Counted from the stretch's first letter, positions 655-12,684 are shown. The stretch is 12,684 nt of DNA from an uncultured bacterium (GCA_964534375.1 CAZHPN010000172.1:1-12684), one strand, 5' to 3'. Notes: a model not told the origin generated them from the letters alone. Numbers and translations: made by a program.

Positions 655-2364
655 TTACCCGTCTTGCAGTACAGCGTCGACCTTCGCCGGATGCGCGTCG
701 TCGGCCAGCGGCCGATACGCGCGATCCAAATGGCGTGAAATCAAGAATTCCGCGACGGCCGCGGTTGCCGCGGCGCCGCGCTGACGCTTTTCCCAACTCG
801 CCTGCGCCAGCAGCAACGCCGCCTGAAAGGCCTGCATCAGTTCTTCGACGTGCAGCCGGATCGCCCGGGCGCCGTAGCGCTCGTTCGCCACGCAGCGCGA
901 CAAGCCGCGATAGGTTTCCGCCCACGCGTCGCGGACGACAGCGGCCTGCGGCGCGAACTGCGCGTCCGCCGCGTCCAGCAGCGAGCGCAGGCGCCGATCG
1001 GCCGCCGCGAACAGCTCGTAGCGCGCCGCATCGTGCAGCACCTGCATGCACAGGACGTTGTGGCTGCCTTCCCAGCTTTCCAGCACGAGGCTGTCGCGCC
1101 ACAGCCGCGGCAACACCGAGAAACTTTCGATGGCGCCATTGCCGCCCAGGATTTCGATTCCGCGATGGATGGCGTCGGTGGCGATGATGCTGGCCCAGTA
1201 TTTGTTGGCGTTGACGAGCAGCCGGTGCAGCTTGCGGTCGTCCGCGTCGGCGGTTCCCAGGTCCTGCCGGTCGATCAACTCGGCAAGGTAAAACGTCGCG
1301 GCCAGCGCGCCGGCGTGCTCCGCCTTCATGATCGCCAGCGTCTCGCGCACCAGCGGGTAGGCGCCGATCGGCTGGCCGAACGCTTCGCGCGCCGCGGCGT
1401 AGGCCGTCGCTTCGAGGAAGGCGCGCCGCATCGCGGCCGTCGACCCGACGGCGTTCATGAAGCGCGAGGTGTTGAGCACGATGCCGACGGCGATCTTGAA
1501 GCCCTCGTCGAGCCGGCCGATGGGGTAGGCGACCGCGCCCTGGAAGTCGAGTTCCGCCGTCGCCAGCGTACGCGTGCCGATTTTTTCCTTGAGCCGGCGG
1601 ATGCTGAAGCCGTTGACGCCGCCGCTCGCGTCGTGGCGCGGAACCAAAAAACAACCGAGCCCCGCGGTGCCGGCCGCCGCGCCCACGGGCCGCGCCGTCA
1701 CCAGAAACAGCGCGGCGTCGGCCACCGAGCAAAACCATTTTTCGCCGTCGAGCAGCCACGTGCCCGGCTCGGCCGGATTCGGCCGCGCGGTCATGGCGTT
1801 CGCGCCGACGTCGCCGCCGCCCTGCACCTCGGTCAGGAACTGCGCGGCGTGCAGCCGGCTTTCGTAGACCGGGTCGAGCAGGCCCGGCAGCCAGCGCTTC
1901 TTCATTTCGTCCAAGCCTTTTTGTTGAATCGCCCGCACCAGCCCCGACGTGCACACGACCGGGCACGAATGTCCCATTTCGCCGGCGTGGCCGAGCAGAT
2001 ACGCCAGCGCGGCCTGCGCCCACGTCTGGCCCGGCTCGGCGAGCCGCGCGACCAGCCCCGCCTCGTAAACCCACTTGCCCAATTGATGGTAGAGCGCGTC
2101 GAATTCGATTTCTTCGACGCGGCGGCCGATGCCGTCGAAGCGCGCCAGCCGTGGGTGGCGCGGCCACTCGTCGTTTTTTCGCGCGGCGTCGTCGATCTTC
2201 GTCGCGGCCAGACCGCCGAATTCAACGAACGGCCGTTCGTCGAAGGGCCCGCCGCGCATTCGTTCGAGCAGGCGCTGCAACAAACCGTTGCCCGTATAGA
2301 AATTCGTCGGTTTCGCCGCTTCCCATTGCGCCAGCCGCGCGCGCCCTTCGTCAGTTTCGTTCAT
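655..2364 (-). CDS. Acyl-CoA dehydrogenase, AidB-like subfamily
   Basis: Motifs GHSCPVVCT, AQFLTEVQGGGDVG, LDGEKWFCS, IRRLKEKIGTRTLATAE, REAFGQPI, EILGGNGAIE and SWEGSHNV (putative catalytic Glu). ATG at 2364 is preceded by SD-like GGCAGGA, so it is preferred over the GTG at 2376. Confidence 0.9.
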   Translation of the reverse strand: MNETDEGRARLAQWEAAKPTNFYTGNGLLQRLLERMRGGPFDERPFVEFGGLAATKIDDAARKNDEWPRHPRLARFDGIGRRVEEIEFDALYHQLGKWVYEAGLVARLAEPGQTWAQAALAYLLGHAGEMGHSCPVVCTSGLVRAIQQKGLDEMKKRWLPGLLDPVYESRLHAAQFLTEVQGGGDVGANAMTARPNPAEPGTWLLDGEKWFCSVADAALFLVTARPVGAAAGTAGLGCFLVPRHDASGGVNGFSIRRLKEKIGTRTLATAELDFQGAVAYPIGRLDEGFKIAVGIVLNTSRFMNAVGSTAAMRRAFLEATAYAAAREAFGQPIGAYPLVRETLAIMKAEHAGALAATFYLAELIDRQDLGTADADDRKLHRLLVNANKYWASIIATDAIHRGIEILGGNGAIESFSVLPRLWRDSLVLESWEGSHNVLCMQVLHDAARYELFAAADRRLRSLLDAADAQFAPQAAVVRDAWAETYRGLSRCVANERYGARAIRLHVEELMQAFQAALLLAQASWEKRQRGAAATAAVAEFLISRHLDRAYRPLADDAHPAKVDAVLQDG

Positions 2365-2397
2365 GGTCCTGCCCACCGTTGGTTTTCGCTGCCCTTC

Positions 2398-2503: not shown

Positions 2504-3418
2504 TCAGAGTTTCTCCGCCGCGAGGTGGCACAGGCCGGCGGCGATTTCTTCGGGCGCGAGGCCGCGAAAACGCGGCGGCAGCGGCAGTCCGCGCACGAAT
2601 GCCACGTCGGCCGGGTCGACCTGCGTCTCCAGAAAAACGGTGCGCAGGCCGGCCGCTTCGGCCAGGCGCCGCATGTCCGGCGCCCGCAGGCGGTTCAGGT
2701 AAAAAAAGCGGTTTTGGCCGAGGCGCCGCCAGGCGCGGTCGTCGAAACGCAGGAAATTCAGCCGCGGCAACGCCGGGTCGCCGTGCGCGAAATGGTCGGA
2801 CAAATCGATGATATGATAAACGAGGCCGCCCGGCGCAAGCAGCCGGGCCGTCTCGCGATGCAGCGCCGGCAAATCCGCCTCCGGAATGTGCTCGAGCACG
2901 CAGGTGGAATAGTACAAATCGAGTTCGCCGTCCGCGAGCGGCACGGCGGACGCCGAGGCCGGGGCGAGGATTTCCAGCCGGCCCGCGGCGAGCAGCCCGG
3001 CGAGGTCGCGGGCGTCGTGCAGGGCCCGCCAGCGCGCGCGCAGGTCGTCGGCGGGCGCGCCGGTCGCCGCGGCGATCTCGGGCAGGCGCGGCTCGGTCTG
3101 CGCCAGCACCTGCCGGAAGCCGGCGTACGTGAGATAGGGCCGGATGTCGAGCAAAATGACGCGTCGGGCGCCCAGCAGCGAGAGCAGCACGCCGTACACC
3201 GGATTCCACCCCGCGCCGATCTCCAACGTGACGCGGCCCGTCGGCGAAAAGCCGCGCATTTCGGCGAGCCGGCGCAGCATCTTCAGCGCCGGCGTCAGGT
3301 GCAGCGAAATGTCGACGGCCAGCGCGGCGGCGCGCGTCCGGCGCCGGCGGTCGAGCGCCTCGCCGAAGGGCGCGGCGGCCAGCAGGCGGAAGAGCGCGGA
3401 TTTGAGTCGCCAATTCAT
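2504..3418 (-). CDS. Class I SAM-dependent methyltransferase
   Basis: Motif I TLEIGAGWNP, acidic ILLDI, post-II DLYYSTCVLEHI and motif III RLLAPGG, followed by HIIDLSDH. Confidence 0.85.
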   Translation of the reverse strand: MNWRLKSALFRLLAAAPFGEALDRRRRTRAAALAVDISLHLTPALKMLRRLAEMRGFSPTGRVTLEIGAGWNPVYGVLLSLLGARRVILLDIRPYLTYAGFRQVLAQTEPRLPEIAAATGAPADDLRARWRALHDARDLAGLLAAGRLEILAPASASAVPLADGELDLYYSTCVLEHIPEADLPALHRETARLLAPGGLVYHIIDLSDHFAHGDPALPRLNFLRFDDRAWRRLGQNRFFYLNRLRAPDMRRLAEAAGLRTVFLETQVDPADVAFVRGLPLPPRFRGLAPEEIAAGLCHLAAEKL

Positions 3419-3425
3419 CGCGCCG

Positions 3426-3848
3426 CTATTCGCCGAGGTACGAGCCGGCCGCCAGGTGGACGCCGGCGACGCGTTCGATGTCGCCCACGCGCACCGTCAG
3501 GCCGTAGCGAATCTTATGAATCGGCGCGCCTTCGTAGTTGTCGAGGGTTTCCAGTTCCTGATCCGTCAGGCCCAGCAGCACGAAGCCAAGGGTCGTCGCG
3601 CCTTCCTGCTCGGCCAGCGTGTAGACCCATTGGCCGCCGGCGCGGTGCGCGCGGCGCGCGTAATTGGGCAGCGCGGCCGGCGCGAACGGCGCATAGCGGC
3701 CGATTTGCTCGCGCACGCGGTCGGGCTCGACCAGTTCGTCCCACACGAAGAGCAGGCGGTGGATGAATAAGTCGTCGAGTTGGACGGCGGCGGCCGGTGG
3801 GCCGAAGATGGTGACGCCTTGAGCGGGAAAGAATCGCGCCGAAAACAT
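3426..3848 (-). CDS. Gamma-glutamylcyclotransferase (GGCT/AIG2-like) fold protein, divergent
   Basis: LLFVWDEL sits where the family has LFVYGTL. GFVLLGLTDQELETLDNYEG matches the LDxxEG motif. SD AAGGA upstream of the ATG. Packed between the GNAT and methyltransferase genes. Confidence 0.7.
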   Translation of the reverse strand: MFSARFFPAQGVTIFGPPAAAVQLDDLFIHRLLFVWDELVEPDRVREQIGRYAPFAPAALPNYARRAHRAGGQWVYTLAEQEGATTLGFVLLGLTDQELETLDNYEGAPIHKIRYGLTVRVGDIERVAGVHLAAGSYLGE

Positions 3849-3876: not shown

Positions 3877-4353
3877 TCACAGTTCCTTGAACATCGCCAA
3901 GCGCTGCACCTCGAAGCCCATCGCGCGCCAGAAGCGCAGCGAGCCGACGTTCTTCGGGATGACGTTGACGTAGATTTCCATCGCGCCGTGATGCCCGAGC
4001 CAGCCGATCGCTTTGCCGGCCATCTCGCGGCCGATGCCCTGGCGACGATATTCCTCGGCGACCATCAGATTTTCCAGCACCCCGATCACCGATTGCGCAA
4101 ACGTTTTGGCCGGCATCGTCAGGTAGCCGTTCGAGAACGAAATGATGCGCCCGGCCGTTTCGGCGACGATGACGTAGGCATCCGCGCGCCGCACGTATTC
4201 GGTGAAGATCGCGCGCTGCTGATCTTCGGCGTTGACCCGCAGCCGATAACGCGGATTGACCTCGGCCGTCAGGTCCATCAGTTCTTTCCAGAGAGCGACC
4301 ACCGCGTCGAGGTCGTTCCGTTGCGCCAGTCGAATGCGGTATTTCGTTTCCAT
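3877..4353 (-). CDS. GNAT family N-acetyltransferase
   Basis: N-terminal IRLAQRNDLDAVVAL, acetyl-CoA motif A LMVAEEYRRQGIG, and motif B NVGSLRFWRAMGF. 158 aa. Confidence 0.92.
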   Translation of the reverse strand: METKYRIRLAQRNDLDAVVALWKELMDLTAEVNPRYRLRVNAEDQQRAIFTEYVRRADAYVIVAETAGRIISFSNGYLTMPAKTFAQSVIGVLENLMVAEEYRRQGIGREMAGKAIGWLGHHGAMEIYVNVIPKNVGSLRFWRAMGFEVQRLAMFKEL

Positions 4354-4483: not shown

Positions 4484-4518
4484 CTCGGATGGCGGAATGC
4501 GGATGGCGGATCGGCGGC
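4484..4518. repeat. Heptamer tandem array, family D (NGCGGAW / TCCGCAW)
   Basis: ctcggat ggcggaa tgcggat ggcggat cggcggc. Reverse-complement relative of the array at 11444-11471. Confidence 0.7.
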
Positions 4519-4520
4519 GT

Positions 4521-4549
4521 GCAAAAAGTCTTTGCGCGGCGCAAAAAAA
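4521..4549 (-). terminator. Possible intrinsic terminator downstream of the hypothetical gene
   Basis: Inverted repeat tttgcgc-g-gcgcaaa (4531-4545). On the minus strand it is followed by gac-TTTTT. The stem is short. Confidence 0.3.
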
Positions 4550-4562
4550 CCTGCGGGGCCGC

Positions 4563-5111
4563 TCAGATTTCGCCGTAGGTGATCAGAAGATTGCGGCAGC
4601 GGGCGAGCATGGCGCGCACATTTTCCTCCAGCGCCTGCAGCGTGGCGGAGTCTTCGGCGCTGTTTTGACCGCCGTTGCCGCCCATGTCCCGCAACATCGA
4701 CCAATTGGCGAACAGCGCCTTGCGCAACGACCGCAATTCCTGCATTTCGATGGTGATCGCCCAAACGTAGGTGTCGAGCACGTAATCGGCGGCGGCGAGC
4801 GTGTAATCGACGCGCGGCGCCAATTCTTCGACGCCGCGCAGCCATTTGCGCAGGCATTGGATATCGCAGCTCGGCGCGTCGTAAAGCTGCGCCAGATAAA
4901 GCGCATGGTCGGTCGCCGTGCGCAGGAGTTGGCGATCGTTGGGCGACGGCGACCCGCGGGCGATGACCGCGTCGATCGCCTCGCGCACCGAATTCATTTC
5001 CGGCTGCGCGGCGGGGGGGCCGGCGGCGCCGAAATCGGCGAGCCAGTCGCGGAAATAGCGGGCCGCCGCCCACAAACCGTTTTCGTGGGCAATGACTTCT
5101 TGAATTTCCAC
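4563..5111 (-). CDS. Hypothetical protein, about 182 aa, probably all-alpha
   Basis: Protein-like composition and GC3-biased codons. GTG at 5111 is preceded by SD GAGGG (5120-5116) and a good promoter, so it is preferred over the track start at 5186. No family recognised. Confidence 0.75.
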   Translation of the reverse strand: MEIQEVIAHENGLWAAARYFRDWLADFGAAGPPAAQPEMNSVREAIDAVIARGSPSPNDRQLLRTATDHALYLAQLYDAPSCDIQCLRKWLRGVEELAPRVDYTLAAADYVLDTYVWAITIEMQELRSLRKALFANWSMLRDMGGNGGQNSAEDSATLQALEENVRAMLARCRNLLITYGEI

Positions 5112-5165
5112 GGGACCCTCGCTGGCGCTGTGTTGCCGATTCGACGTGCGATTTTCGCGCCACGT

Positions 5166-5193
5166 ATTATAAGAGCCAAGTCGCAAAACGCAA
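5166..5193 (-). promoter_or_regulatory. Sigma70-type promoter for the hypothetical gene
   Basis: Minus strand reads TTGCGT (5193-5188)-N16-TATAAT (5171-5166). A perfect -10 box in a GC-rich background. Confidence 0.65.
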
Positions 5194-5300: not shown

Positions 5301-6043
5301 GGTTCTGAAAGGACAAAACTGCTTGCCTCGAGCGACGCCTGCGCGACAGCCAGGGCGGCCAGCGCGGCGGTTTCGGCGCGCAAGACGCGCGGCCCGAGGT
5401 GGGCGGCGGCCCAGCCGCGCTCGACCAGCCAGGCGAGTTCGGCGTCGGTCAGCCCGCCTTCCGGGCCGCTGAGCAGGCACAACGACTTCCCGGCGTTCGC
5501 CGCCAGAACTTCTGGCAACGACTCGCTGGCCCCGGGATCGAAGGCCACGCGCACTTCATATGCCGCGGCCCGTTCGGCCGCCGCGGCCAGCGTCGGCGCG
5601 AAATGCACCCGCGGGGCGTCGGCCCGGCCGCACTGGGCGCAGGCGCCGGCGATCGTCGCCGTGAGGCGCGCGAGTTTGCGTTCGACCTGTTCCGGGCCCC
5701 AGCGCACGACCGAGCGTTCCGCCGCGAAGACGACGATTTCCGCGGCGCCGAGTTCGCAGGCTTTTTCGGCGATCCATTCGGGCTTGTCGCCCTTGCTGAG
5801 CGCGAAAATCAAGGCGACCGGCGGGCCGGCGCGGCGCCGCACGGCGTAGGGCGCGTCGACGGCGAGCGTCACCGCCCGCCGGTTGACGTCGAGCACGACG
5901 GCGGCGGCCTCGCAGCCCGCGCCGTCGAAAAGGACGAGGCGGTCGCCAGCGCGCATGCGGCGGACGTGCGCCAAGTGGTGCGCGGCCGGCCCGGTCAGCG
6001 CCAGCCGGCCGGCGGCCAGATGCTCGACCAGGCAACGGGTCAC
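5279..6043 (-). CDS. rsmE: 16S rRNA m3U1498 methyltransferase RsmE
   Basis: HHLAHVRRMRAGDRLVLFDG, EKACELG, ACAQCGR, SGPEGGLT and LGPRVLRAETA (SPOUT fold). The GTG start (6043-6041) overlaps the prmA TGA stop (GTGA). Confidence 0.95.
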   Translation of the reverse strand: MTRCLVEHLAAGRLALTGPAAHHLAHVRRMRAGDRLVLFDGAGCEAAAVVLDVNRRAVTLAVDAPYAVRRRAGPPVALIFALSKGDKPEWIAEKACELGAAEIVVFAAERSVVRWGPEQVERKLARLTATIAGACAQCGRADAPRVHFAPTLAAAAERAAAYEVRVAFDPGASESLPEVLAANAGKSLCLLSGPEGGLTDAELAWLVERGWAAAHLGPRVLRAETAALAALAVAQASLEASSFVLSEPDEQDER

Positions 6044-6930
6044 GCGTGTTCGAGTTCCAGCAGAATCCATTCGTCCTGTTCTTCCTCGCGCGCCAGCGAC
6101 ATGCCGCGCTCGTCGTAGGCGGCGATCATTTCGCGGCGCGATTCGGCGAGCACGCCGGTGAGCGCGAGCCGGCCGCCGGGTTTGGTGCGGCGGGTCAGAT
6201 CGCCCGCCATTTCGAGCAACGTCGGCGCGGTAATGTTGGCCGCGACCAGATCGAACTCGCCGCGAATCTGGTGCAGCGGCCGATGGGTGAATTCGGCGGC
6301 GGCCTCCAGGCCGTTGAGCGCGGCGTTTTCCCGCGCGGCGGCGACGGCGGCTGGGTCGATATCCACCCCCACCGCCCGTGCCGCGCCGGACAGCAGCGCG
6401 GCGAGCGCGAGGATGCCGGTGCCCGTGCCGACGTCGAGCACGGCGCCGCCCGGGTGCGCCAAGCACCAGCGTTCGACGCTGCGCGCGGCCAATTGCGTCG
6501 TGGCGTGCGTGCCGAAGCCGAAGGCCATTTTCGGCTCGATGATCAGGCGGCGCATGCCGGCCGGCGGCGGCGCGGGGTCCCACGACGGCTGCACGGCCAG
6601 CCGTTCGGTGAGCGCGGTTTGTTTGAAGTATTTCATCCACGACACGGCCCAGTCGTCGTTCGGGCGCTCGTCGATGCGCACGGTCGCGGCGCGCGCGGCC
6701 GGGTCGATTTTCGCCAGTTCCACGAGGTAATCGCGCGTCGTTTTGGCGTAGCGCTCGATCGCGGGCCGGTCGTCGCCGTAGGTCAGCAGGCGCACGCCGG
6801 TCGCCGACGCATGCTCCTCGAGGCCCTGCAAGCCGACGTCGAACAGCCGGCTGGCGATGGCGTCAGCCAGGTCCGCCGGCGTTTCGATCACCAGCACATA
6901 GAGGGTTTCACGAGGTTTGGCGGTTTTCAT
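6040..6930 (-). CDS. prmA: 50S ribosomal protein L11 methyltransferase PrmA
   Basis: DWAVSWMKYF, IEPKMAFGFGTHATT, VLDVGTGTGILA, GVDIDPAAV, ENAALN, FDLVAANI. The prmA-rsmE adjacency is typical. Confidence 0.95.
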   Translation of the reverse strand: MKTAKPRETLYVLVIETPADLADAIASRLFDVGLQGLEEHASATGVRLLTYGDDRPAIERYAKTTRDYLVELAKIDPAARAATVRIDERPNDDWAVSWMKYFKQTALTERLAVQPSWDPAPPPAGMRRLIIEPKMAFGFGTHATTQLAARSVERWCLAHPGGAVLDVGTGTGILALAALLSGAARAVGVDIDPAAVAAARENAALNGLEAAAEFTHRPLHQIRGEFDLVAANITAPTLLEMAGDLTRRTKPGGRLALTGVLAESRREMIAAYDERGMSLAREEEQDEWILLELEHA

Positions 6931-6944
6931 CAGCTAGCAACCCG

Positions 6945-6972
6945 CGGGATTCGGGGTTCGGGGTTCGGGGCG
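6945..6972. repeat. Heptamer tandem array, family A (CGGGRTT / CCCGAAY)
   Basis: cgggatt cggggtt cggggtt cggggcg, immediately upstream of prmA. Confidence 0.8.
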
Positions 6973-6992
6973 TTGGGGCGGATTCGGAAGTC

Positions 6993-7039
6993 ATAGGACC
7001 CATGGGACCTATAGAACCTATAGGACCTATAAGACCTAT
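6993..7039. repeat. Nonamer tandem array, family B (ATAGGACCT x5)
   Basis: ataggaccc atgggacct atagaacct ataggacct ataagacct at. Confidence 0.9.
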
Positions 7040-7061
7040 TTGCCCTAATTCGCCCATCGTG

Positions 7062-7898
7062 CTAACCCTTGCATGCGGCGGTTCGCTGCCGGACCGTCCG
7101 ACTACTGACTACTGACTGCTGCGTTCCGACTTCTGACTCCTGGTTTCTGCCTTCTATCTCCTGGCCGCCCGCCGCCAGCGGCAAATCATACCCCGGTTTG
7201 CCGACGGGCACGCCGCCCCACCAGGTGTCGCAACGGTCGGCCATTTCGTTCATGCGGTCGCTGACCGCTTGCCGGATACGTTCGCACTCGGCCTCGTCGG
7301 CGTCGGGCGGCACGAACACCGGCTCGCCGTGCAGCAGCACGATTTTCGTGAACGGCAGCGGCAGAAAATAGCGGTCCCATGACTGGAAGACGAGGCGCCG
7401 CTTCGCCCCGTACATCATCGGGATGATCGGCAGGCCGGTTTCGCGGGCGAGTTTCACCGTCCCCATCTTCAGTTGCCGCGCCGGCCCCTTCGGGCCGTCG
7501 GCCATCATGCCTGCCGTGTGGCCCTCGCGCTCCCGCAGCTTGTCGATCAGGTTCCGCAGCGCTTCGCGGCCGCGGCGCGTCCCGCTGCCGCGCACCGAAT
7601 AAAATCCGAGCCGCAACGCCAGGGCGTTGGCGTACTCGCCGTCTTTGCTGGTGCTGATCATCATCGTCACGTGGCGCGAGCCGAAGTCATAAAAAAAATA
7701 AAACATCCGCTGATGCCACGTGGGGTAAATGCAACCGCCGTATTTCTGCAGCGCTTCGCGTTCGCGCTCCTCGTGCTCGCGCGCGACCACGCGGCACGAA
7801 CCGTTCCACAAACGCAGCAGCCACGCCGCGATCGGCGGCGCGATTCGGAGCAGCAGCCTCTCCCAGAAGTTGAAGACATTATTCGCCTGTTCGGACAT
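7062..7898 (-). CDS. DUF374 / lysophospholipid acyltransferase-like protein
   Basis: PTWHQR, MMISTSKDGE, VRGSGTRRGREA, MMADGPKGP, LARETGLPIIP and SWDRYFLPLPF match DUF374-type proteins. The last ~35 aa are an atypical tail. Confidence 0.88.
   Translation of the reverse strand: MSEQANNVFNFWERLLLRIAPPIAAWLLRLWNGSCRVVAREHEEREREALQKYGGCIYPTWHQRMFYFFYDFGSRHVTMMISTSKDGEYANALALRLGFYSVRGSGTRRGREALRNLIDKLREREGHTAGMMADGPKGPARQLKMGTVKLARETGLPIIPMMYGAKRRLVFQSWDRYFLPLPFTKIVLLHGEPVFVPPDADEAECERIRQAVSDRMNEMADRCDTWWGGVPVGKPGYDLPLAAGGQEIEGRNQESEVGTQQSVVSSRTVRQRTAACKG
7098..7160. repeat. Heptamer tandem array, family C (CTGACTN / CAGAAGT), inside the 3' end of the DUF374 CDS
   Basis: ccgacta ctgacta ctgactg ctgcgtt ccgactt ctgactc ctggttt ctgcctt ctatctc (9 degenerate units). 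Confidence 0.8.
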
Positions 7899-7904
7899 GG
7901 CGTC

Positions 7905-7934
7905 AGAATATGGTCACCCGCCGCCTTGCGTCAA
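7905..7934 (-). promoter_or_regulatory. Sigma70-type promoter for the DUF374 gene, likely giving a leaderless mRNA
   Basis: Minus strand reads TTGACG (7934-7929)-N18-TATTCT (7910-7905)-N6-ATG (7898). No SD is visible. Confidence 0.55.
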
Positions 7935-7981
7935 GTTGCCGCGCGACACAAACTATCCGTGAGCATCGACAGGAGGCCGTT

Positions 7982-9682
7982 GTGGGAATTTTGCGGTGGT
8001 TGTGGGAAATGGCCGCGCGGGCGTACGCGGCGGTCTATTGGCGGCTGACCGGGCGCCTCCTGCGGCGCGCGCGGTACGAGGCGATCGAGATCGAAATCGC
8101 CGGCGCATTGCCCGAACACCGGGCGCCGGGCTCGCCGTTCGAATTTCGTCGCCCGGCGCGGCTGACCCATCGGCGGCTGATCGAGCTGCTGGATTTCGCC
8201 GCGGCCGACCCGCGCCTGAAGACGATCATCGTGCGGCTGGGGCCGCTCACCGTCGGGCTGGCGCGGCTGCAGGAGGTCGCGCGCGCGCTCGACCGGGTCA
8301 AGGCCGCCGGCAAGACGCTGGTCGCGCACCTGGATTCCGTCGGCCTGCGCGAATACGTGCTCGCGGCGCGCTGCCAGCGGCGGCTGATGACGCCGACCGC
8401 GGTGCTCGCGCTCACCGGGCTCAACATGGAAATCACCTATCTGCGCGGCCTGCTCGACAAGGCCGACGTCGAGGCCGATTTGCTCGTCGCCGGCAAGTTC
8501 AAGAGCGCCGCCGAAATGTTCACGCGCACCAGCGCCGGCGAGGCGTCGCACGCGATGACCGAGGGGCTGCTCGACGACCTCTACACGCAGCTCGTCGCCG
8601 ACGTCGCGACGGCCCTCGGCAAGAGCCCGGCGCAGGTGGCGAAGTTGATCGACGGCGGACCGTACGCGCCCGAGCGGGCGGTAAAGGCCGGCCTCGTCGA
8701 CAAGCTCGCCTACCGCGACGAGATGCTCGCGGAACTCGGCGTCAAAGACGAACGACGGCTGGTCCCTGGGCTGCGCTATTGGCGGCTCATGGAGCGCCGC
8801 GAACGCGCCCGGGCGCGGATGATCGCCGCGCCGACCCTGGCGCTGGTCCATTTGTCGGGCGCGATCCGCGACGGCCGCGGCGACCCGGCGAGCGGGCGGC
8901 CCGGCGCCGACAGTTACGTCAAGCTGCTGCGCCGCCTGCGCCGCGACAAACGCGTCAAGGCGGTGGTGCTGCGCATTGCCAGTCCCGGCGGCGCGGCCGG
9001 CGGCTCGGATCTGATCCGGCGCGAGGCGGCCAACCTCGCCGCGGAGAAGCCGCTGGTGGTCAGCATGGGCGACGTCGCCGCTTCGGGCGGTTATATGGCG
9101 GCGGTCGCAGGCCGGACGATTCTCGCCGAACCGGCCACGTTGACCGGCTCGATCGGCGTCATCGCGGGCAAGTTCGCGGTCGCCGGGCTGCTCGCCAAAC
9201 TCGGCGTAAACGTCGAGGCGCACCGACGCGGCGCCGCGGCGGGCATCTTTAGCGGCCTCGGGCGGTTTTCCGCGTTGGAACGGAGGCGCATGACCGAAGT
9301 GCTCGGCGCGGCCTACAGTTCATTCAAGGAAGCGGTCGCCGCGGGCCGAAAAATGACGGCCGAACGCGTCGACGAAATCGCCGAGGGCCGCGTCTGGACC
9401 GGCCGCGAAGCGCTCGAACACAAGCTCGTCGACAAGCTCGGCGGCCTCGCCGAAGCGCTCGCCGAGGCGAAAAATCTCGCCGGCTGCGCGGCCGGCGAGC
9501 CGGCGCGCTGGATCGAGTTCCCCCAGCCGCTCAGCCCGTGGCGGCTGTTGCGCAGTTTCGGGGCGGTTGACGCCGTTTTGCCGGCCCTCACGGCCGATTC
9601 GCCGCTGGCCATGCTCGACGAGATGCGCGCTCTGGCCGCGGGTCCGTATGCGGGGCTGCCTTTCCGAATTCGCGTCAAGTGA
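7982..9682 (+). CDS. sppA: Signal peptide peptidase SppA (protease IV, two-domain 67K type, S49)
   Basis: GKFKSAAE (general-base Lys), VLRIASPGG, SMGDVAASGGY (nucleophile Ser), TLTGSIGV, IAEGRVWTGREA, LVDKLGG. GTG at 7982 lies 5 nt after a perfect AGGAGG (7971-7976). Confidence 0.93.
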   Translation: MGILRWLWEMAARAYAAVYWRLTGRLLRRARYEAIEIEIAGALPEHRAPGSPFEFRRPARLTHRRLIELLDFAAADPRLKTIIVRLGPLTVGLARLQEVARALDRVKAAGKTLVAHLDSVGLREYVLAARCQRRLMTPTAVLALTGLNMEITYLRGLLDKADVEADLLVAGKFKSAAEMFTRTSAGEASHAMTEGLLDDLYTQLVADVATALGKSPAQVAKLIDGGPYAPERAVKAGLVDKLAYRDEMLAELGVKDERRLVPGLRYWRLMERRERARARMIAAPTLALVHLSGAIRDGRGDPASGRPGADSYVKLLRRLRRDKRVKAVVLRIASPGGAAGGSDLIRREAANLAAEKPLVVSMGDVAASGGYMAAVAGRTILAEPATLTGSIGVIAGKFAVAGLLAKLGVNVEAHRRGAAAGIFSGLGRFSALERRRMTEVLGAAYSSFKEAVAAGRKMTAERVDEIAEGRVWTGREALEHKLVDKLGGLAEALAEAKNLAGCAAGEPARWIEFPQPLSPWRLLRSFGAVDAVLPALTADSPLAMLDEMRALAAGPYAGLPFRIRVK

Positions 9683-9690
9683 CGCGATTT

Positions 9691-9725
9691 CGGAAGACAG
9701 AAGTCAGAAGTCAGAAGGCAGAAGG
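9691..9725. repeat. Heptamer tandem array, family C (CAGAAGK x5)
   Basis: cggaaga cagaagt cagaagt cagaagg cagaagg, starting 8 nt after the sppA stop. Confidence 0.88.
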
Positions 9726-9762
9726 CCGGCGCCGCACTGCTCGCCTGCGCCGGCTCAGGTGG

Positions 9763-9825
9763 TAGGTGAAATAGGTCATCTAGGTCGTATAGGTCCCATA
9801 AGTCCTATGGGTTCCGTAATTCCCA
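9763..9825. repeat. Nonamer tandem array, family B (TAGGTCCYA, about 7 units)
   Basis: taggtgaaa taggtcatc taggtcgta taggtccca taagtccta tgggttccg taattccca. Reverse complement of the 6993-7039 family. Confidence 0.85.
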
Positions 9826-9841
9826 TGGCAACCCGCGCTCT

Positions 9842-9929
9842 CCCGAATCCCGGGACCCGAAATCCGGCGCCCGGCACCCGGAACCCGGAACCCGAATCCC
9901 GAGTCCCGAGTCCCGAGTCCCGAATCCCG
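9842..9929. repeat. Heptamer tandem array, family A (CCCGRRW, 12.5 units)
   Basis: cccgaat cccggga cccgaaa tccggcg cccggca cccggaa cccggaa cccgaat cccgagt cccgagt cccgagt cccgaat cccg. Confidence 0.92.
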
Positions 9930-9958
9930 TTCACGGGCGCCCGCTCATCTGCTATAAA
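9930..9958 (+). promoter_or_regulatory. Sigma70-type promoter with extended -10 for the FabK-like gene
   Basis: TTCACG (9930-9935)-N17-TATAAA (9953-9958), with TG at 9950-9951. SD GAGG at 9976-9979. Confidence 0.55.
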
Positions 9959-9986: not shown

Positions 9987-10943
9987 ATGAATCGTGTGCG
10001 GAAACTTTTCGGCATTCGTTATCCGATCGTCGGGGCCGGCATGGTCTGGTGGTCCAACGCCGATCTTTGCGCCGCCGTGGCCGCGACCGGCTGCTTGGGC
10101 CTGCTCGCCGGCGGCAGCCATACGCCGGAGCAGATGGCCGCGGCGATCGACGAGGTGCGCCGCCGCACCGACGGCGTCTTCGGCATCAATATTCCGCTGC
10201 TCTACTCGACCGCCGACGAGATCATCCGCGTCGGCCTGGACAAGGGCGTCAAGATTTTCTTCACCAGCGCGGGCAGCCCGAAGAAGTACACCGGCCTGAT
10301 CCACGAACGGGGCGGCATCGTCGTGCACGTCGTGCCGGCGGCGAAACTGGCTAAAAAATGCGAGGAGGCCGGCTGCGACGCGGTCGTGGCCGAGGGCGGC
10401 GAAGGCGGCGGGCACATCGCCGCGGAACCGGTCGCCAGCATGGTGTTGTGGCCGGCGGTCGTCGACGCGGTGAAGATTCCGGTAATCGCGGCCGGCGGCG
10501 TCGTCGACGCCCGGCACATGGCCGCGGCGTTCGCGCTCGGCGCCGACGGCATCCAGGTCGGCACGCGGTTCATCGCCTGCGCGGAATCGACCGGCCACCC
10601 CGCGTACGTGCAGCGCGTGCTCGACATGGACGAAACCGGCACCGCCGTCACCGGCCGTTTCATCGAACCGGTGCGCGGCATCCGCAACAAATTGACCGAC
10701 GCGATCGTCGAGATGGAGCGCGAGGGCAAATCGCCGCAGGAAATCCTCGCCTTCATCGGCCCCGGCCGCAGCCGCGCCGCAACGCTCGACGGCGACGTCG
10801 AGTGGGGCTCGATGCAGTGCGGCCAGGTCGCCGGCCTGATCCACGACCGGCCGCCGGCGGCCGAAGTGGTCCGCCGCTTCGTCGACGATTATCGCCGGGT
10901 GGTCGAGCGCACCGCGGCGATGGACCCGGCGATCACGACCTGA
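9987..10943 (+). CDS. FabK-like enoyl-ACP reductase II / nitronate monooxygenase family flavoprotein
   Basis: IRYPIVGAGMVW, FGINIPL, AVVAEGGEGGGH, KIPVIAAGGVVD, LGADGIQVGTRF, GQVAGLI. ATG at 9987 with SD GAGG. The upstream extension in the ORF track is repeat-derived. Confidence 0.9.
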   Translation: MNRVRKLFGIRYPIVGAGMVWWSNADLCAAVAATGCLGLLAGGSHTPEQMAAAIDEVRRRTDGVFGINIPLLYSTADEIIRVGLDKGVKIFFTSAGSPKKYTGLIHERGGIVVHVVPAAKLAKKCEEAGCDAVVAEGGEGGGHIAAEPVASMVLWPAVVDAVKIPVIAAGGVVDARHMAAAFALGADGIQVGTRFIACAESTGHPAYVQRVLDMDETGTAVTGRFIEPVRGIRNKLTDAIVEMEREGKSPQEILAFIGPGRSRAATLDGDVEWGSMQCGQVAGLIHDRPPAAEVVRRFVDDYRRVVERTAAMDPAITT

Positions 10944-10949
10944 GGGACA

Positions 10950-11005
10950 CGGGATTCGGGATTCGGGACTCGGGACTCGGGACTCGGGATTCGGGATTCG
11001 GGACT
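10950..11005. repeat. Heptamer tandem array, family A (CGGGAYT x8)
   Basis: cgggatt cgggatt cgggact cgggact cgggact cgggatt cgggatt cgggact, starting 6 nt after the stop codon. Confidence 0.95.
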
Positions 11006-11101
11006 CCGGTCCTGGGTTTGCGAACAGGGAGGCCAACCACTGTTCACTGGTCCCTGCGGGCCGCGCTCGCCAAAAAAAATCAGGGCGCCGTCGCTTTTCT
11101 G

Positions 11102-11129
11102 TTGACTGTAAAATCGAACCGACTATCTT
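11102..11129 (+). promoter_or_regulatory. Sigma70-type promoter upstream of the ATP-grasp gene
   Basis: TTGACT (11102-11107)-N16-TATCTT (11124-11129), with an A8 tract (11072-11079) upstream that could act as an UP element. Confidence 0.6.
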
Positions 11130-11276
11130 TCTGCACTGAACGAACGTGGCAATCGCGGACACGAATTAAGAAAGCGCCAACCACATGCCAAAGCCAGTCG
11201 CTGGCTCGCCCGCAAAGGACTCGTCGGCCGCCTCGCCGCTTGATCCGGACCCCTTGCCGGCGGAGGCGCGAGCACT

Positions 11277-11318
11277 CAGTAGTCAGAAGTCAGTAGTCAG
11301 AAGTCAGAAGCCAGAAGT
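11277..11318. repeat. Heptamer tandem array, family C (CAGWAGY x6)
   Basis: cagtagt cagaagt cagtagt cagaagt cagaagc cagaagt. Confidence 0.92.
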
Positions 11319-11388
11319 TCGAAGAGCCTCCCGCAAAATTCGACCCTTCGATGGTTCGCCAGCGTCGATCTGCGCCGCCGGCGCGATC

Positions 11389-11423
11389 CCCGGAACCCGG
11401 AACCCGGAACCCGGGACCCGAAT
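11389..11423. repeat. Heptamer tandem array, family A (CCCGGAA-type x5)
   Basis: cccggaa cccggaa cccggaa cccggga cccgaat. Confidence 0.9.
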
Positions 11424-11443
11424 CGGCGAATCTTGCCATCCAT

Positions 11444-11471
11444 TCCGCAATCCGAAATCCGCTATCGGCAA
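11444..11471. repeat. Heptamer tandem array, family D (TCCGCAA-type x4)
   Basis: tccgcaa tccgaaa tccgcta tcggcaa. Confidence 0.8.
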
Positions 11472-11489
11472 TCTCATGGGGCGAACAGT

Positions 11490-12684
11490 ATGAAGATCGC
11501 GTTCACGCACAATTTGCAGGTCCGCCAGAGCGAAGAAGAGGCCGAATTCGACCGGCCGGAAACGGTCCACGCGATCGCCTCCGCGCTCGAACGGCTCGGA
11601 CACGAAGTCGAACTGATCGAGGTCAGCGGCCCGGCGTCGCGGGTCGTCGCGCGGCTCGAAGCCATGAACCCGGCGCTGGCGTTCAACACGGCCGAGGGCC
11701 GCGCCGGGCGGTTCCGCGAGGCGTTTTATCCGGGCCTGTTCGACCAACTGGCGGTGCCGTACACCGGCTCGGACGCCTACGTCTGCTCGATCACGCTCGA
11801 CAAGCAGTTGACGAAGATGCTTGTCGCCGCCCACGGCGTGCCGACCCCGCGCTGGCGGTTCTACGACGACCTGCGCACGTTCACGATGCCCGAGTTGACC
11901 TACCCCGTCATCGTCAAGCCGAATTTCGAAGGCAGTTCCAAGGGCATCACGCAGGATTCGGTCGTCGACCACCCGAGCCGCCTGCTGGAAAAAGTCACGG
12001 AAATGCTGGGCCAGTATCCGTCCGGCATCATCGTCGAGGAATTCATTCCAGGCAAAGACATCACCGTAGCGTTTCTCGAAAAGGCCTCGCCGAAAACCGG
12101 CGGCGTGCTGCCCGCGACCGAATACATTTTCGCGGCGCACGTCATGGCCGGCCGCCGCTACAACATCATGGACTTCGCGCTGAAGCTGACCGAAAACGAT
12201 TGCGTGACGCTCAAGTCGCCCGCGGACATCCCGCCCGAGACAGCCGAGGAATTCTCGCGGCTCTCGCGCAAGATCTACAGCATCCTCGGCGTGCGCGACC
12301 TGGGCTCCGTCGACTTCCGCCTGACGCCGGACGGCCGCATCTACTTCCTCGAACTGAACGCGTTGCCGATCCTCAACCCCGGCGCCGTCACCTATTGCGC
12401 GGCGCAGGCCGTCGGCTTGAAAGACATGGACGGCGTGCTCGAGGCCGTCATCCGCAGCGCCGCCGAGCGCCAGGGCATCGACATGTCCAAGAGCCGGCTG
12501 AAGGCCAAGCGCCGGCAACTGCGCGTCGGCCTGACCTACAACCTCAAACGCAAAGTGCCCAAATCCGCCGACGACGACGACAGCGAAGCCGAGTACGATT
12601 CGTGGACGACGATCGAGTCGATCGGCAAAGGCATCGCCTCGCACGGCCACGAGGTCGTTTACCTCGAAGCGACGCCCGAACTGC
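11490..12684 (+). CDS. D-Ala-D-Ala-ligase-like ATP-grasp protein with tandem duplicated domains (3' truncated; absent from ORF track)
   Basis: Manual translation gives MKIAFTHNL...EAEFDRPETVHAIASALERLGHEV...AFNTAEG...VPYTGSD...TLDKQLTK...YPVIVKPNFEGSSKGI...IVEEFIPGKDITV...VDFR...YFLELNALP. From about 12519 a second N-terminal module follows: LRVGLTYNLKR...EAEYDSWTTIESIGKGIASHGHEVVYLEA. No stop before the window end. Confidence 0.9.
   Translation, partial: MKIAFTHNLQVRQSEEEAEFDRPETVHAIASALERLGHEVELIEVSGPASRVVARLEAMNPALAFNTAEGRAGRFREAFYPGLFDQLAVPYTGSDAYVCSITLDKQLTKMLVAAHGVPTPRWRFYDDLRTFTMPELTYPVIVKPNFEGSSKGITQDSVVDHPSRLLEKVTEMLGQYPSGIIVEEFIPGKDITVAFLEKASPKTGGVLPATEYIFAAHVMAGRRYNIMDFALKLTENDCVTLKSPADIPPETAEEFSRLSRKIYSILGVRDLGSVDFRLTPDGRIYFLELNALPILNPGAVTYCAAQAVGLKDMDGVLEAVIRSAAERQGIDMSKSRLKAKRRQLRVGLTYNLKRKVPKSADDDDSEAEYDSWTTIESIGKGIASHGHEVVYLEATPEL

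Follow-up and report, generated by a model that had tools for sequence, protein, structure and literature searches.

Ordered Heptamer and Nonamer Repeat Arrays at Gene Ends around a Divergent DUF374/sppA Pair in an Uncultured Bacterium

Introduction

Bacterial interspersed mosaic elements (BIMEs) of Escherichia coli are ordered mosaics of repetitive extragenic palindromic (REP) units, palindromes of 35-40 nt that occur with conserved linker motifs. Many large bacterial genomes abound in tandem arrays of heptamers, which have been without an accepted function since their description; the cyanobacterial ones are presumably those named short tandemly repeated repetitive (STRR) sequences. The stretch of DNA analyzed here, 12,684 nt from an uncultured bacterium (GCA_964534375.1, CAZHPN010000172.1:1-12684; hereafter the window), carries arrays of three short-repeat families, C, B, and A, which follow one another in the same order along transcription after both members of a divergent gene pair, sppA and a DUF374 gene.

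Long simple sequence repeats were treated by Mrazek et al. (2007), who, as summarized in PMC4679880 and PMC4692102, found units of 5-11 nt with heptamers dominant and proposed slippage as their origin; Calothrix heptamer repeats are also cited in PMC4692102. Two described systems stand closest to the present locus. Rehm et al. (2015, PMC4692102) described G-rich heptamers, GGGAATC in Xanthomonas and GGGGAYT in Nostoc, that lie "almost exclusively" nearer the open reading frame (ORF) on their 5′ side, whatever the orientation of that ORF. In practice the G-rich strand is then antisense ≤50 bp before a start codon or sense ≤50 bp after a stop codon. MacGregor (2015, PMC4679880) described TAACTGA heptamers in marine Beggiatoaceae, Cyanobacteria, and Bacteroidetes.

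We report below that arrays of families C and A are placed by strand and position relative to gene ends, and that the placement of C recurs in distant phyla. On balance, we favor the explanation that the arrays grew separately and were kept where gene ends tolerate their position and orientation, so that their order comes from anchoring and not from one compound element.

Results and Discussion

Repeat Arrays in the Window

A sequence-only reading of the window had listed three regions of ordered arrays. By Tandem Repeats Finder (TRF), autocorrelation, and reading of the sequence, we recovered all of its arrays at, or a few bases from, the positions it gave, and the C-B-A order along transcription was confirmed after sppA (plus strand) and after DUF374 (minus strand). 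The families are C (CAGAAGT), B (the nonamer ATAGGTCCY), and A (CCCGAAT/CCCGAGT/CCCGGAA). The arrays number ten, eight of heptamers and two of nonamers (Table 1). The third region, given as C-A-D before an ATP-grasp gene, stands in that form, but the list was incomplete: the inverted A array at 10944-11009 had been omitted, and once it is counted region 3 reads A′...C-A-D. The description of the arrays as intergenic holds for nine of the ten, which lie between Pfam-supported genes. The tenth, the C-like array at 7097-7164, is part of the DUF374 ORF and falls in its 3′ tail, which is nonconserved and has a G+C content at third codon positions (GC3) of the noncoding type.

At a score of ≥40, TRF returned 15 rows for the window, 13 of them of period 7, 9, 14, or 21; in 200 dinucleotide shuffles the mean was 1.5 rows (maximum 6) overall and 0.27 (maximum 2) for those periods. 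The pattern GGGNNTC ×3 with ≤1 mismatch gave 12 matches in the window vs 0.01 expected. The arrays are long simple-sequence repeats, a known kind. The B unit, ATAGGTCCT, is near-palindromic and self-pairing, and the strand of this family was decided by its central base (TAGGTCCTA vs TAGGACCTA), which is consistent within each array. The nominal chance that the second spacer would agree with the first in order and strand is 1/6 × 1/8 = 1/48, calculated post hoc and for the window alone. The two blocks appear as a mirror image around DUF374/sppA because these genes are divergent. Purine fractions on the sense strand for C, B, and A are 0.76, 0.49, and 0.46 after sppA and 0.69, 0.46, and 0.38 after DUF374.

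Table 1. Coordinates of repeat arrays, a hairpin, and genes in the window
Feature	Coordinates	Strand	Details
Family A	6944-6972	-	CCCCGAA/CCCGAAT on minus (sense); TRF 6945-6970, period 7, 3.7 copies, 94%
Family B	6993-7042	-	9-mer on minus; TRF period 9, 5.2 copies, 84%
Family C-like	7097-7164	-	CAGTAGT/CAGAAGT/CAGGAGT on minus; TRF 7100-7155, period 7, 8 copies, 71%
Family C (CAGAAGT)	9691-9728	+	TRF 9693-9724, period 7, 4.6 copies, 92%
GC-rich hairpin between C and B	9724-9755	+	9-bp stem, no U tract; in minimum free energy and centroid folds of the spacer
Family B (ATAGGTCMY)	9763-9825	+	TRF 9763-9795, period 9, 3.7 copies, 79%; decays 3′-ward
Family A (CCCGGAA, CCCGAAT, CCCGAGT)	9842-9930	+	TRF 9849-9894, CCCGGAA ×6.6; 9891-9929, CCCGAGT ×5.6, 93%
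Family A, inverted	10944-11009	-	GGGATTC/GGGACTC on plus (sense); TRF 10944-11006, period 7/14/21, scores 87-98
Family C	11276-11318	+	alternating TCAGTAG, TCAGAAG; TRF period 7, 6.1 copies, 86%
Family A (CCCGGAA)	11387-11421	+	TRF 11389-11420, 4.6 copies, 96%; 68 nt before ATP-grasp start
Family D, decayed A-like heptamer run (CCGNAAT)	11441-11461	+	period-7 autocorrelation and reading
AidB-like acyl-CoA dehydrogenase gene	655-2376	-	Pfam
Methyltransferase gene	2504-3418	-	Pfam
GGACT-like ORF	3426-3848	-	weak Pfam match
GNAT acetyltransferase gene	3877-4353	-	Pfam
ABATE-like ORF	4563-5186	-	weak Pfam match
rsmE	5279 to about 6010	-	Pfam
prmA (ribosomal protein L11 methyltransferase)	6040-6930	-	Pfam PrmA, E = 4.6e-55; GC3 0.86
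DUF374/lysophospholipid acyltransferase-like gene	7062-7898 (stop 7062-7064)	-	Pfam DUF374, E = 3.3e-20
sppA (signal peptide peptidase, S49 family)	7910-9682 (stop 9680-9682)	+	Pfam Peptidase_S49, E = 1.7e-66; atlas look-alikes
NMO/FabK-like FMN oxidoreductase gene	9987-10943	+	Pfam NMO, E = 5.8e-58
ATP-grasp, D-Ala-D-Ala-ligase-like gene	11490-12683, continues past window end	+	Pfam Dala_Dala_lig_C, E = 4.3e-24; GC3 0.87

Anchoring of Families C and A at Gene Ends

Family C was followed beyond the window by a scan for exact (CAGAAGT)x3 (20 nt), for which ∼1 chance match is expected in 596 Gb; it returned at least 121 stretches, taken with 10-kb flanks. All locus counts given below refer to the 121 listed stretches (1.1 Mb), which were sampled by their family C match. 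Grouped by hand, they span at least eight phyla: Acidobacteriota 30, Cyanobacteriota 27, Bacteroidota 14, Nitrospirota 10, Planctomycetota 10, Verrucomicrobiota 8, Proteobacteria 8, "delta" 7, and other 7. Isolate genomes are included, namely, those of Moorena producens 3L, Okeania hirsuta, Epilithonimonas mollis DSM 18016, and Pedobacter montanisoli.

For the 79 loci that measure ≥2 kb, genes were called by means of a codon model seeded by GC3, which agrees with Pfam for the genes of the window. Positions of C arrays were read on the CAGAAGT strand, and the counts exclude the window, the duplicate locus L042, and 10 arrays inside ORFs. Where the 5′ neighbor is a stop codon, 27 of the 58 C arrays lie within 15 nt of it, compared with 8 of 47 where the 5′ neighbor is a start codon. 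On the 3′ side, none of 61 arrays falls within 30 nt of a start codon, and 3 of 38 fall within 15 nt of a stop codon. The ORFs upstream of the 27 stop-adjacent arrays appear to be real genes in most cases: 23 carry a Pfam domain (E ≤ 1e-5), often extending to the last residues, and 4 carry none. The adjoining stop codon is TAG in 15 of these 27 cases vs 187 of 780 other genes in the same loci (24%; p = 9e-4). In 10 of the 15 (examples of TAG-stop loci are L003, L034, L049, L059, and L073, among others), the TAG stands in the register of the array and differs by one substitution from the unit's CAG or AAG, as if a unit had mutated into a stop.

Within the window, two of the three C arrays have their ORF on the 5′ side in this way, one starting 8 nt past the sppA stop codon and the other fused to the end of the DUF374 ORF. 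All four A arrays conform to the 5′-side rule for the G-rich strand: they lie 13, 56, 0, and 68 nt from the nearer ORF (prmA start, fabK-like start, fabK-like stop, and ATP-grasp start, respectively) and 89, 159, 480, and 443 nt from the ORF on the other side. In the array at 6944-6972, 13 nt from the prmA start codon, the plus strand is G-rich (G fraction 0.59) and has four G-tracts, with a match to the G3 pattern at 6946-6966. The array at 9842-9930, 56 nt from the fabK-like start, is C-rich in sense (C fraction 0.45) and has its G3 pattern on the minus strand at 9887-9928; the inverted array at 10944-11009 begins 1 nt past the fabK-like stop and contains seven G3 pattern matches.

Arrays placed in this manner may change what is called a gene. 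The C-like array at 7097-7164, together with the sequence after it, encodes a 38-residue C-terminal tail of the DUF374 protein (7062-7178, minus strand), with a GC3 of 0.66 vs 0.84 in the body of the gene. The protein has 293 homologues at E ≤ 1e-20. Those at 70-79% identity are missing the tail; they mostly end 3-12 residues past the motif VGKPG[FY]DLP, and a few have longer, unrelated tails. One homologue, P0066, ends in a tail with SQKPEAE-like residues, which may derive from a similar array.

The fabK-like gene, in turn, is bracketed by complementary A arrays. Their arms (9870-9929 and 10957-11016) extend over 60 nt, are 87% complementary, and stand 1,027 nt apart; within them, 36 nt form an exact inverted repeat in which the unit variants follow the same order. 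The bracketing follows from the orientation of the gene and the anchoring of its arrays. The shared variant order (AAT, AGT ×3, AAT; 36 nt exact) was considered as a sign of common descent and rejected, as by our estimate it is within chance for two variant types. If both arms were on one transcript, they could pair the ends of the mRNA, and at the DNA level they could permit inversion. If anchoring sets the order, arrays that can lengthen proteins or surround genes with long inverted repeats matter for gene calling.

Purine-to-Pyrimidine Polarity of Adjacent Arrays

Independently of any gene call, we compared the purine content of neighboring arrays. Among all 154 adjacent pairs, the higher purine content belongs to the 5′ array in 86 and to the 3′ array in 27, with 41 pairs similar (p = 2e-8); counted by locus, the ratio is 45 vs 8. 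The bias is found in the 38 complementary pairs (31 vs 5, 2 similar) and in the 101 noncomplementary pairs of different families (55 vs 22, 24 similar), and it persists in pairs that lack a C-like array (37 vs 17, 28 similar; p = 0.009). By group, the ratio is 27:3 in Acidobacteriota, 10:1 in Bacteroidota, and 11:2 in "delta"; all groups other than Cyanobacteriota, when pooled, give 68 vs 12. When gene calls are used, 83 of 106 purine-rich arrays in codirectional spacers are nearer the stop codon and 57 of 76 pyrimidine-rich arrays are nearer the start codon. Stated by strand, the rules for C and A are one: the purine-rich strand of an array points its 5′ end at an ORF.

Some complementary arrays are nested or paired, as in (CACAGAGAA)n (AGAAGTC)n (CTTCTGA)n (TTCTCTGTG)n, and amount to long tandem-repeat hairpins with the purine-rich arm first; they were seen at L093 192-366 and also at L079 6314-6492, L040 (several), and L030 5655-5714 and 6212-6285.

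Explanation of the Order

The mechanism that we infer would begin with slipped-strand expansion of short seeds into arrays, which would be retained only where transcript and template tolerate them. Two rules would then describe the survivors. Purine-rich C sits with its 5′ end against the stop codon of a gene on the same strand, and in DUF374 it has become the tail of the protein. The G-rich strand of family A has its 5′ end at the nearest ORF, and the sense strand is accordingly C-rich before starts (prmA, fabK-like, and ATP-grasp genes) and G-rich after the fabK-like stop. Family B, which has no purine skew and pairs with itself, would occupy the middle. With C held at the stop and A at the next ORF, the order C-B-A would therefore result, with B between them. 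As for the nature of the filter, the tolerated forms would be stop-free, structure-free purine-rich runs after stops and, before starts, C-rich leaders with their G-rich complement on the template. The copy number of an array may also tune the expression of flanking genes.

Several observations weigh against this explanation. The third C array of the window (11276-11318) breaks the rule for C: it is 332 nt from the nearest upstream stop and closer to the downstream start. The strand bias of C in codirectional spacers is moderate, at 46 sense vs 28 antisense, a count that includes the window's two arrays and two double-counted ones; among the antisense arrays, many serve as the second arm in an inverted pair. 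Cyanobacteriota, for which L015, L023, L037, and L059 are examples among the loci, show no polarity (18 vs 15, 20 similar), and in the window the weak array (CGGATGG)4 at 4486-4517 runs opposite to it. Purine content alone does not place B before A (0.49 vs 0.46 after sppA). Both B arrays nevertheless lie between C and A, and B was met nowhere else in the window or in the 121 listed loci, which come from other genomes; B could be part of a lineage-specific unit. The gene caller is our own and crude, with unreliable starts, and the Pfam check on it covers the 27 stop-adjacent ORFs and the window genes. Finally, the same heptamer recurs at stop codons in many phyla, for which slippage alone is insufficient.

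If anchoring sets the order, clusters of this type ought to be kept out of mobile-element annotation. The rules (purine-rich strand at the ORF, (CAGAAGT)n after stops, TAG taken from the array) would in themselves suggest a testable cause connected with gene ends.

Alternative Explanations

The foremost alternative, possible but in our judgment unlikely, is that C-B-A is a selected RNA module: a purine-rich pad after the stop codon, a hairpin made of the GC-rich stem and B, and a C-rich leader before the next start. Such a module could hold or release the ribosome, bind a protein, end or insulate the transcript, or pair the ends of the fabK-like mRNA through the 87% complementary arrays that flank this gene. 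It would account for two features that neutral slippage does not predict, namely, the placement of one heptamer at real stop codons across many phyla and the derivation of TAG stops from the C array. Some C variants also carry a Shine-Dalgarno-like AGGAG, and most of the comparable Xanthomonas repeats are transcribed according to PMC4692102.

Folding predictions fall on both sides of this alternative. As RNA, the C arrays are unstructured, folding less than their shuffles (z = +2.4 for 7097-7164) or like them (z = 0.0 for 11276-11318), and the array at 9691-9728 has little structure, consistent with a pad. B of spacer 1 (6993-7042) forms a self-hairpin of -22.2 kcal/mol (z = -3.1), a value that none of 200 shuffles equaled, and the fold of the entire spacer 2 has a modest advantage over its shuffles (z = -2.2). 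B of spacer 2 (9763-9825; z = -0.24) and spacer 1 as a whole (z = -0.08), however, fold like shuffles. A terminator scan called no canonical terminator in the three spacers, the hairpin at 9724-9755 included, which counts in favor of the module; Rfam and tRNA scans of the window gave no match, the Rfam result counting against it. The G-rich strand of family A fits the usual sequence definition of a G-quadruplex, all four arrays having at least four G/C tracts with one G3+ tract per heptamer, and is thus predicted to be capable of forming one. A cause at the DNA level would fit the polarity equally well: it is strand-symmetric and, according to PMC4692102, independent of ORF orientation. The authors of that paper could not identify a regulatory role.

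A bolder form of this idea, speculative and to our minds improbable, would make heptamer arrays a positional code shared across phyla, in which the 5′ end of the purine-rich strand is anchored at ORF ends. (CAGAAGT)n would then be a stop-anchored 3′ element in at least eight phyla, often supplying the TAG, and a universal reader would be implied, for example, the ribosome at termination or a conserved factor that binds RNA or DNA. C-B-A clusters would be "sentences" in this code, composed of stop pad, hairpin, and leader.

Less probable again is a true compound element, in which C-B-A is one unit of the lineage that was spread or homogenized by recombination, gene conversion, or another form of insertion. 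The sequence-only reading had proposed a modular element of this kind, built by targeted insertion or recombination. The two blocks do share the identical three families, order, and strand, with B met only in them; between blocks, the B arms are 80% complementary over 54 nt (one arm at 6985-7038) and the C arms are 81% complementary over 32 nt. Recurrent ordered pairs exist in other genomes as well, for example, AACATTG followed by AATGATA twice in L072. The linkers, however, are not alike. Their similarity scores between the two blocks are 15 vs 11.8 ± 2.2 for shuffles (p = 0.10) and 9 vs 8.8 (p = 0.45), and comparisons involving region 3 give p = 0.17 to 0.34. Array lengths differ between the blocks, as do the unit variants (CCCGAAC vs CCCGAAT/CCCGAGT/CCCGGAA in A; CAGTAGT-rich vs CAGAAGT in C), and region 3 is without B and carries an additional inverted A. 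The two blocks share the repeat families and nothing else. No terminal inverted repeat or target-site duplication was noticed on reading the flanks, where array ends are fuzzy and no formal test was run, and Pfam finds no transposase, integrase, or reverse transcriptase gene in the window.

The distribution of family C bears on the same question. Among the 121 listed stretches, A-like arrays were met in 2 and B-like ones in none, so that C stands without A or B in at least 119 of them; a blastn comparison of the window with these loci (283 rows; the window's own genome is absent from the set) matched in the repeats alone. Of 167 C-like arrays, 82 have no neighboring array within 150 bp. The only recurrent partner of C is its own complement, always as [C][C′] (21 pairs, 0 reversed), and its remaining partners represent 15 families 5′ of it and 44 families 3′ of it. 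In the 1.1 Mb there are 216 clusters in which at least two arrays stand within 150 bp, five of them in the window; period 7 prevails, with 541 of 1303 TRF rows vs 65 of period 6 and 109 of period 8. Since partners are varied and clusters common, C has no tie to either A or B, and mixed clusters are usual in repeat-rich genomes. A mobile cassette is unsupported because the linkers are unalike and because family C, in nearly all of the listed stretches from other genomes, occurs without A or B. Of the earlier proposal, what survives is that the order exceeds an accident of independent slippage and that there is a "grammar", understood as positional polarity; the modular inserted element does not.

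The peptide encoded by the sppA-fabK spacer in the open fabK frame was tried as a proxy query for C-B-A and set aside, as its hits contained no C-B-A peptide order. A word-index search with it gave 27 candidates, none at E ≤ 0.001, and an exhaustive search of representatives gave 55 hits, all of them ORFs running through A-like arrays (PGTRNPE, PESRVPS, PESRIPN, PGSRLPA, etc.).

An assembly or sequencing artifact from low-complexity reads, to which the known occurrence of the DUF374 protein in only 4 contigs (longest 23.9 kb) and a probably metagenome-type assembly lend some color, is very hard to credit, as the arrays are 21-89 nt long and hence below ordinary read length, fit exactly between intact genes that match Pfam along their length, and resemble arrays in the four isolate genomes named above. 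We retain anchoring of separately grown arrays as the preferred explanation.

Genomic Setting

The window has ∼66% G+C and consists of ordinary, Pfam-supported genes, with a GC3 of 0.78-0.90 in the true genes and lower values in antisense shadow ORFs. The nearest protein clusters suggest, as a lead only, a host lineage within Myxococcota or one that is "deltaproteobacterial". An ORF at 11185-11493 (102 codons) runs through arrays C, A, and D and overlaps the ATP-grasp gene at an ATGA. This ORF is probably noncoding, because its G+C content is flat by codon position (0.62/0.63/0.62) vs a GC3 of 0.82-0.90 in real genes. In the sense direction, heptamer arrays of these families are free of stops and encode an identical 7-residue peptide repeat in all frames.

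The weak heptamer array at 4486-4517 (CGGATGG ×4.4, TRF score 41) is located in the spacer separating the ABATE-like ORF from the GNAT gene and is followed, at about 4518-4550, by a stem-loop with A and T runs. The divergent DUF374/sppA junction measures 11 nt, and three overlapping promoter-like sites on the minus strand were seen in the region 7878-7934; a further promoter-like site is at 11102-11129, and another, TTCACG-17-TATAAA, was noticed by eye at about 9930-9958. An A-rich run, ATAAAAAAAATAAAACA, occurs at 7689-7705 within the 5′ part of DUF374.

Comparison with Known Systems

BIMEs resemble the present clusters in being intergenic and in combining several motif types in fixed order and orientation; here, however, the units are tandem and of 7-9 nt, and the linkers are not conserved. 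A CRISPR array can be ruled out, as the units are 7-9 nt and contiguous vs repeats of ∼23-50 nt separated by unique spacers. Closer in kind are the long simple sequence repeats and STRR heptamers, which have head-to-tail units of 5-11 nt in excess of chance, lie between genes, and occur, as here, in a large, G+C-rich genome of a nonpathogen. In the literature on such repeats that we searched, we did not find a description of the stop anchoring, phylum spread, or TAG register of (CAGAAGT)n, nor of a purine-to-pyrimidine array order or an extension of the 5′-ORF rule to other families; the C heptamer, searched as a whole word in six of its seven rotations, gave no match in work on bacterial repeats.

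The TAACTGA repeats, as described in PMC4679880, are like family C in that they occur in distant phyla, are intergenic, are tied to a gene end, and have no mobile-element signature. TAACTGA is also one base from CTACTGA, the complement of a C variant unit. In contrast, TAACTGA repeats lie a few nucleotides upstream of start codons and contain stops in all frames, while family C lies directly after stop codons, is stop-free in sense, and, as counted above, keeps clear of 3′ starts (0 of 61 within 30 nt).

The Xanthomonas and Nostoc repeats of PMC4692102 share with family A one G3-4 tract per 7-nt unit, at least four units per array, and an intergenic position. Their G-rich strand likewise has its 5′ side toward the ORF, being antisense ahead of a start and sense past a stop, and they too have inverted copies and flanking genes of general metabolism. 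They differ in sequence, the units of family A being GGGATTC, GGGACTC, GGGGTTC, and GGGTTCC and not GGGAATC or GGGGAYT; they are single families and not ordered multifamily clusters; and the host lineage here is different, probably "deltaproteobacterial". The repeats of that paper are of the G-quadruplex type, to which family A is likened by its G-tracts and position. Family A is best regarded as a relative of the Xanthomonas and Nostoc G-rich heptamers in behavior, and not as a member of either family by sequence.

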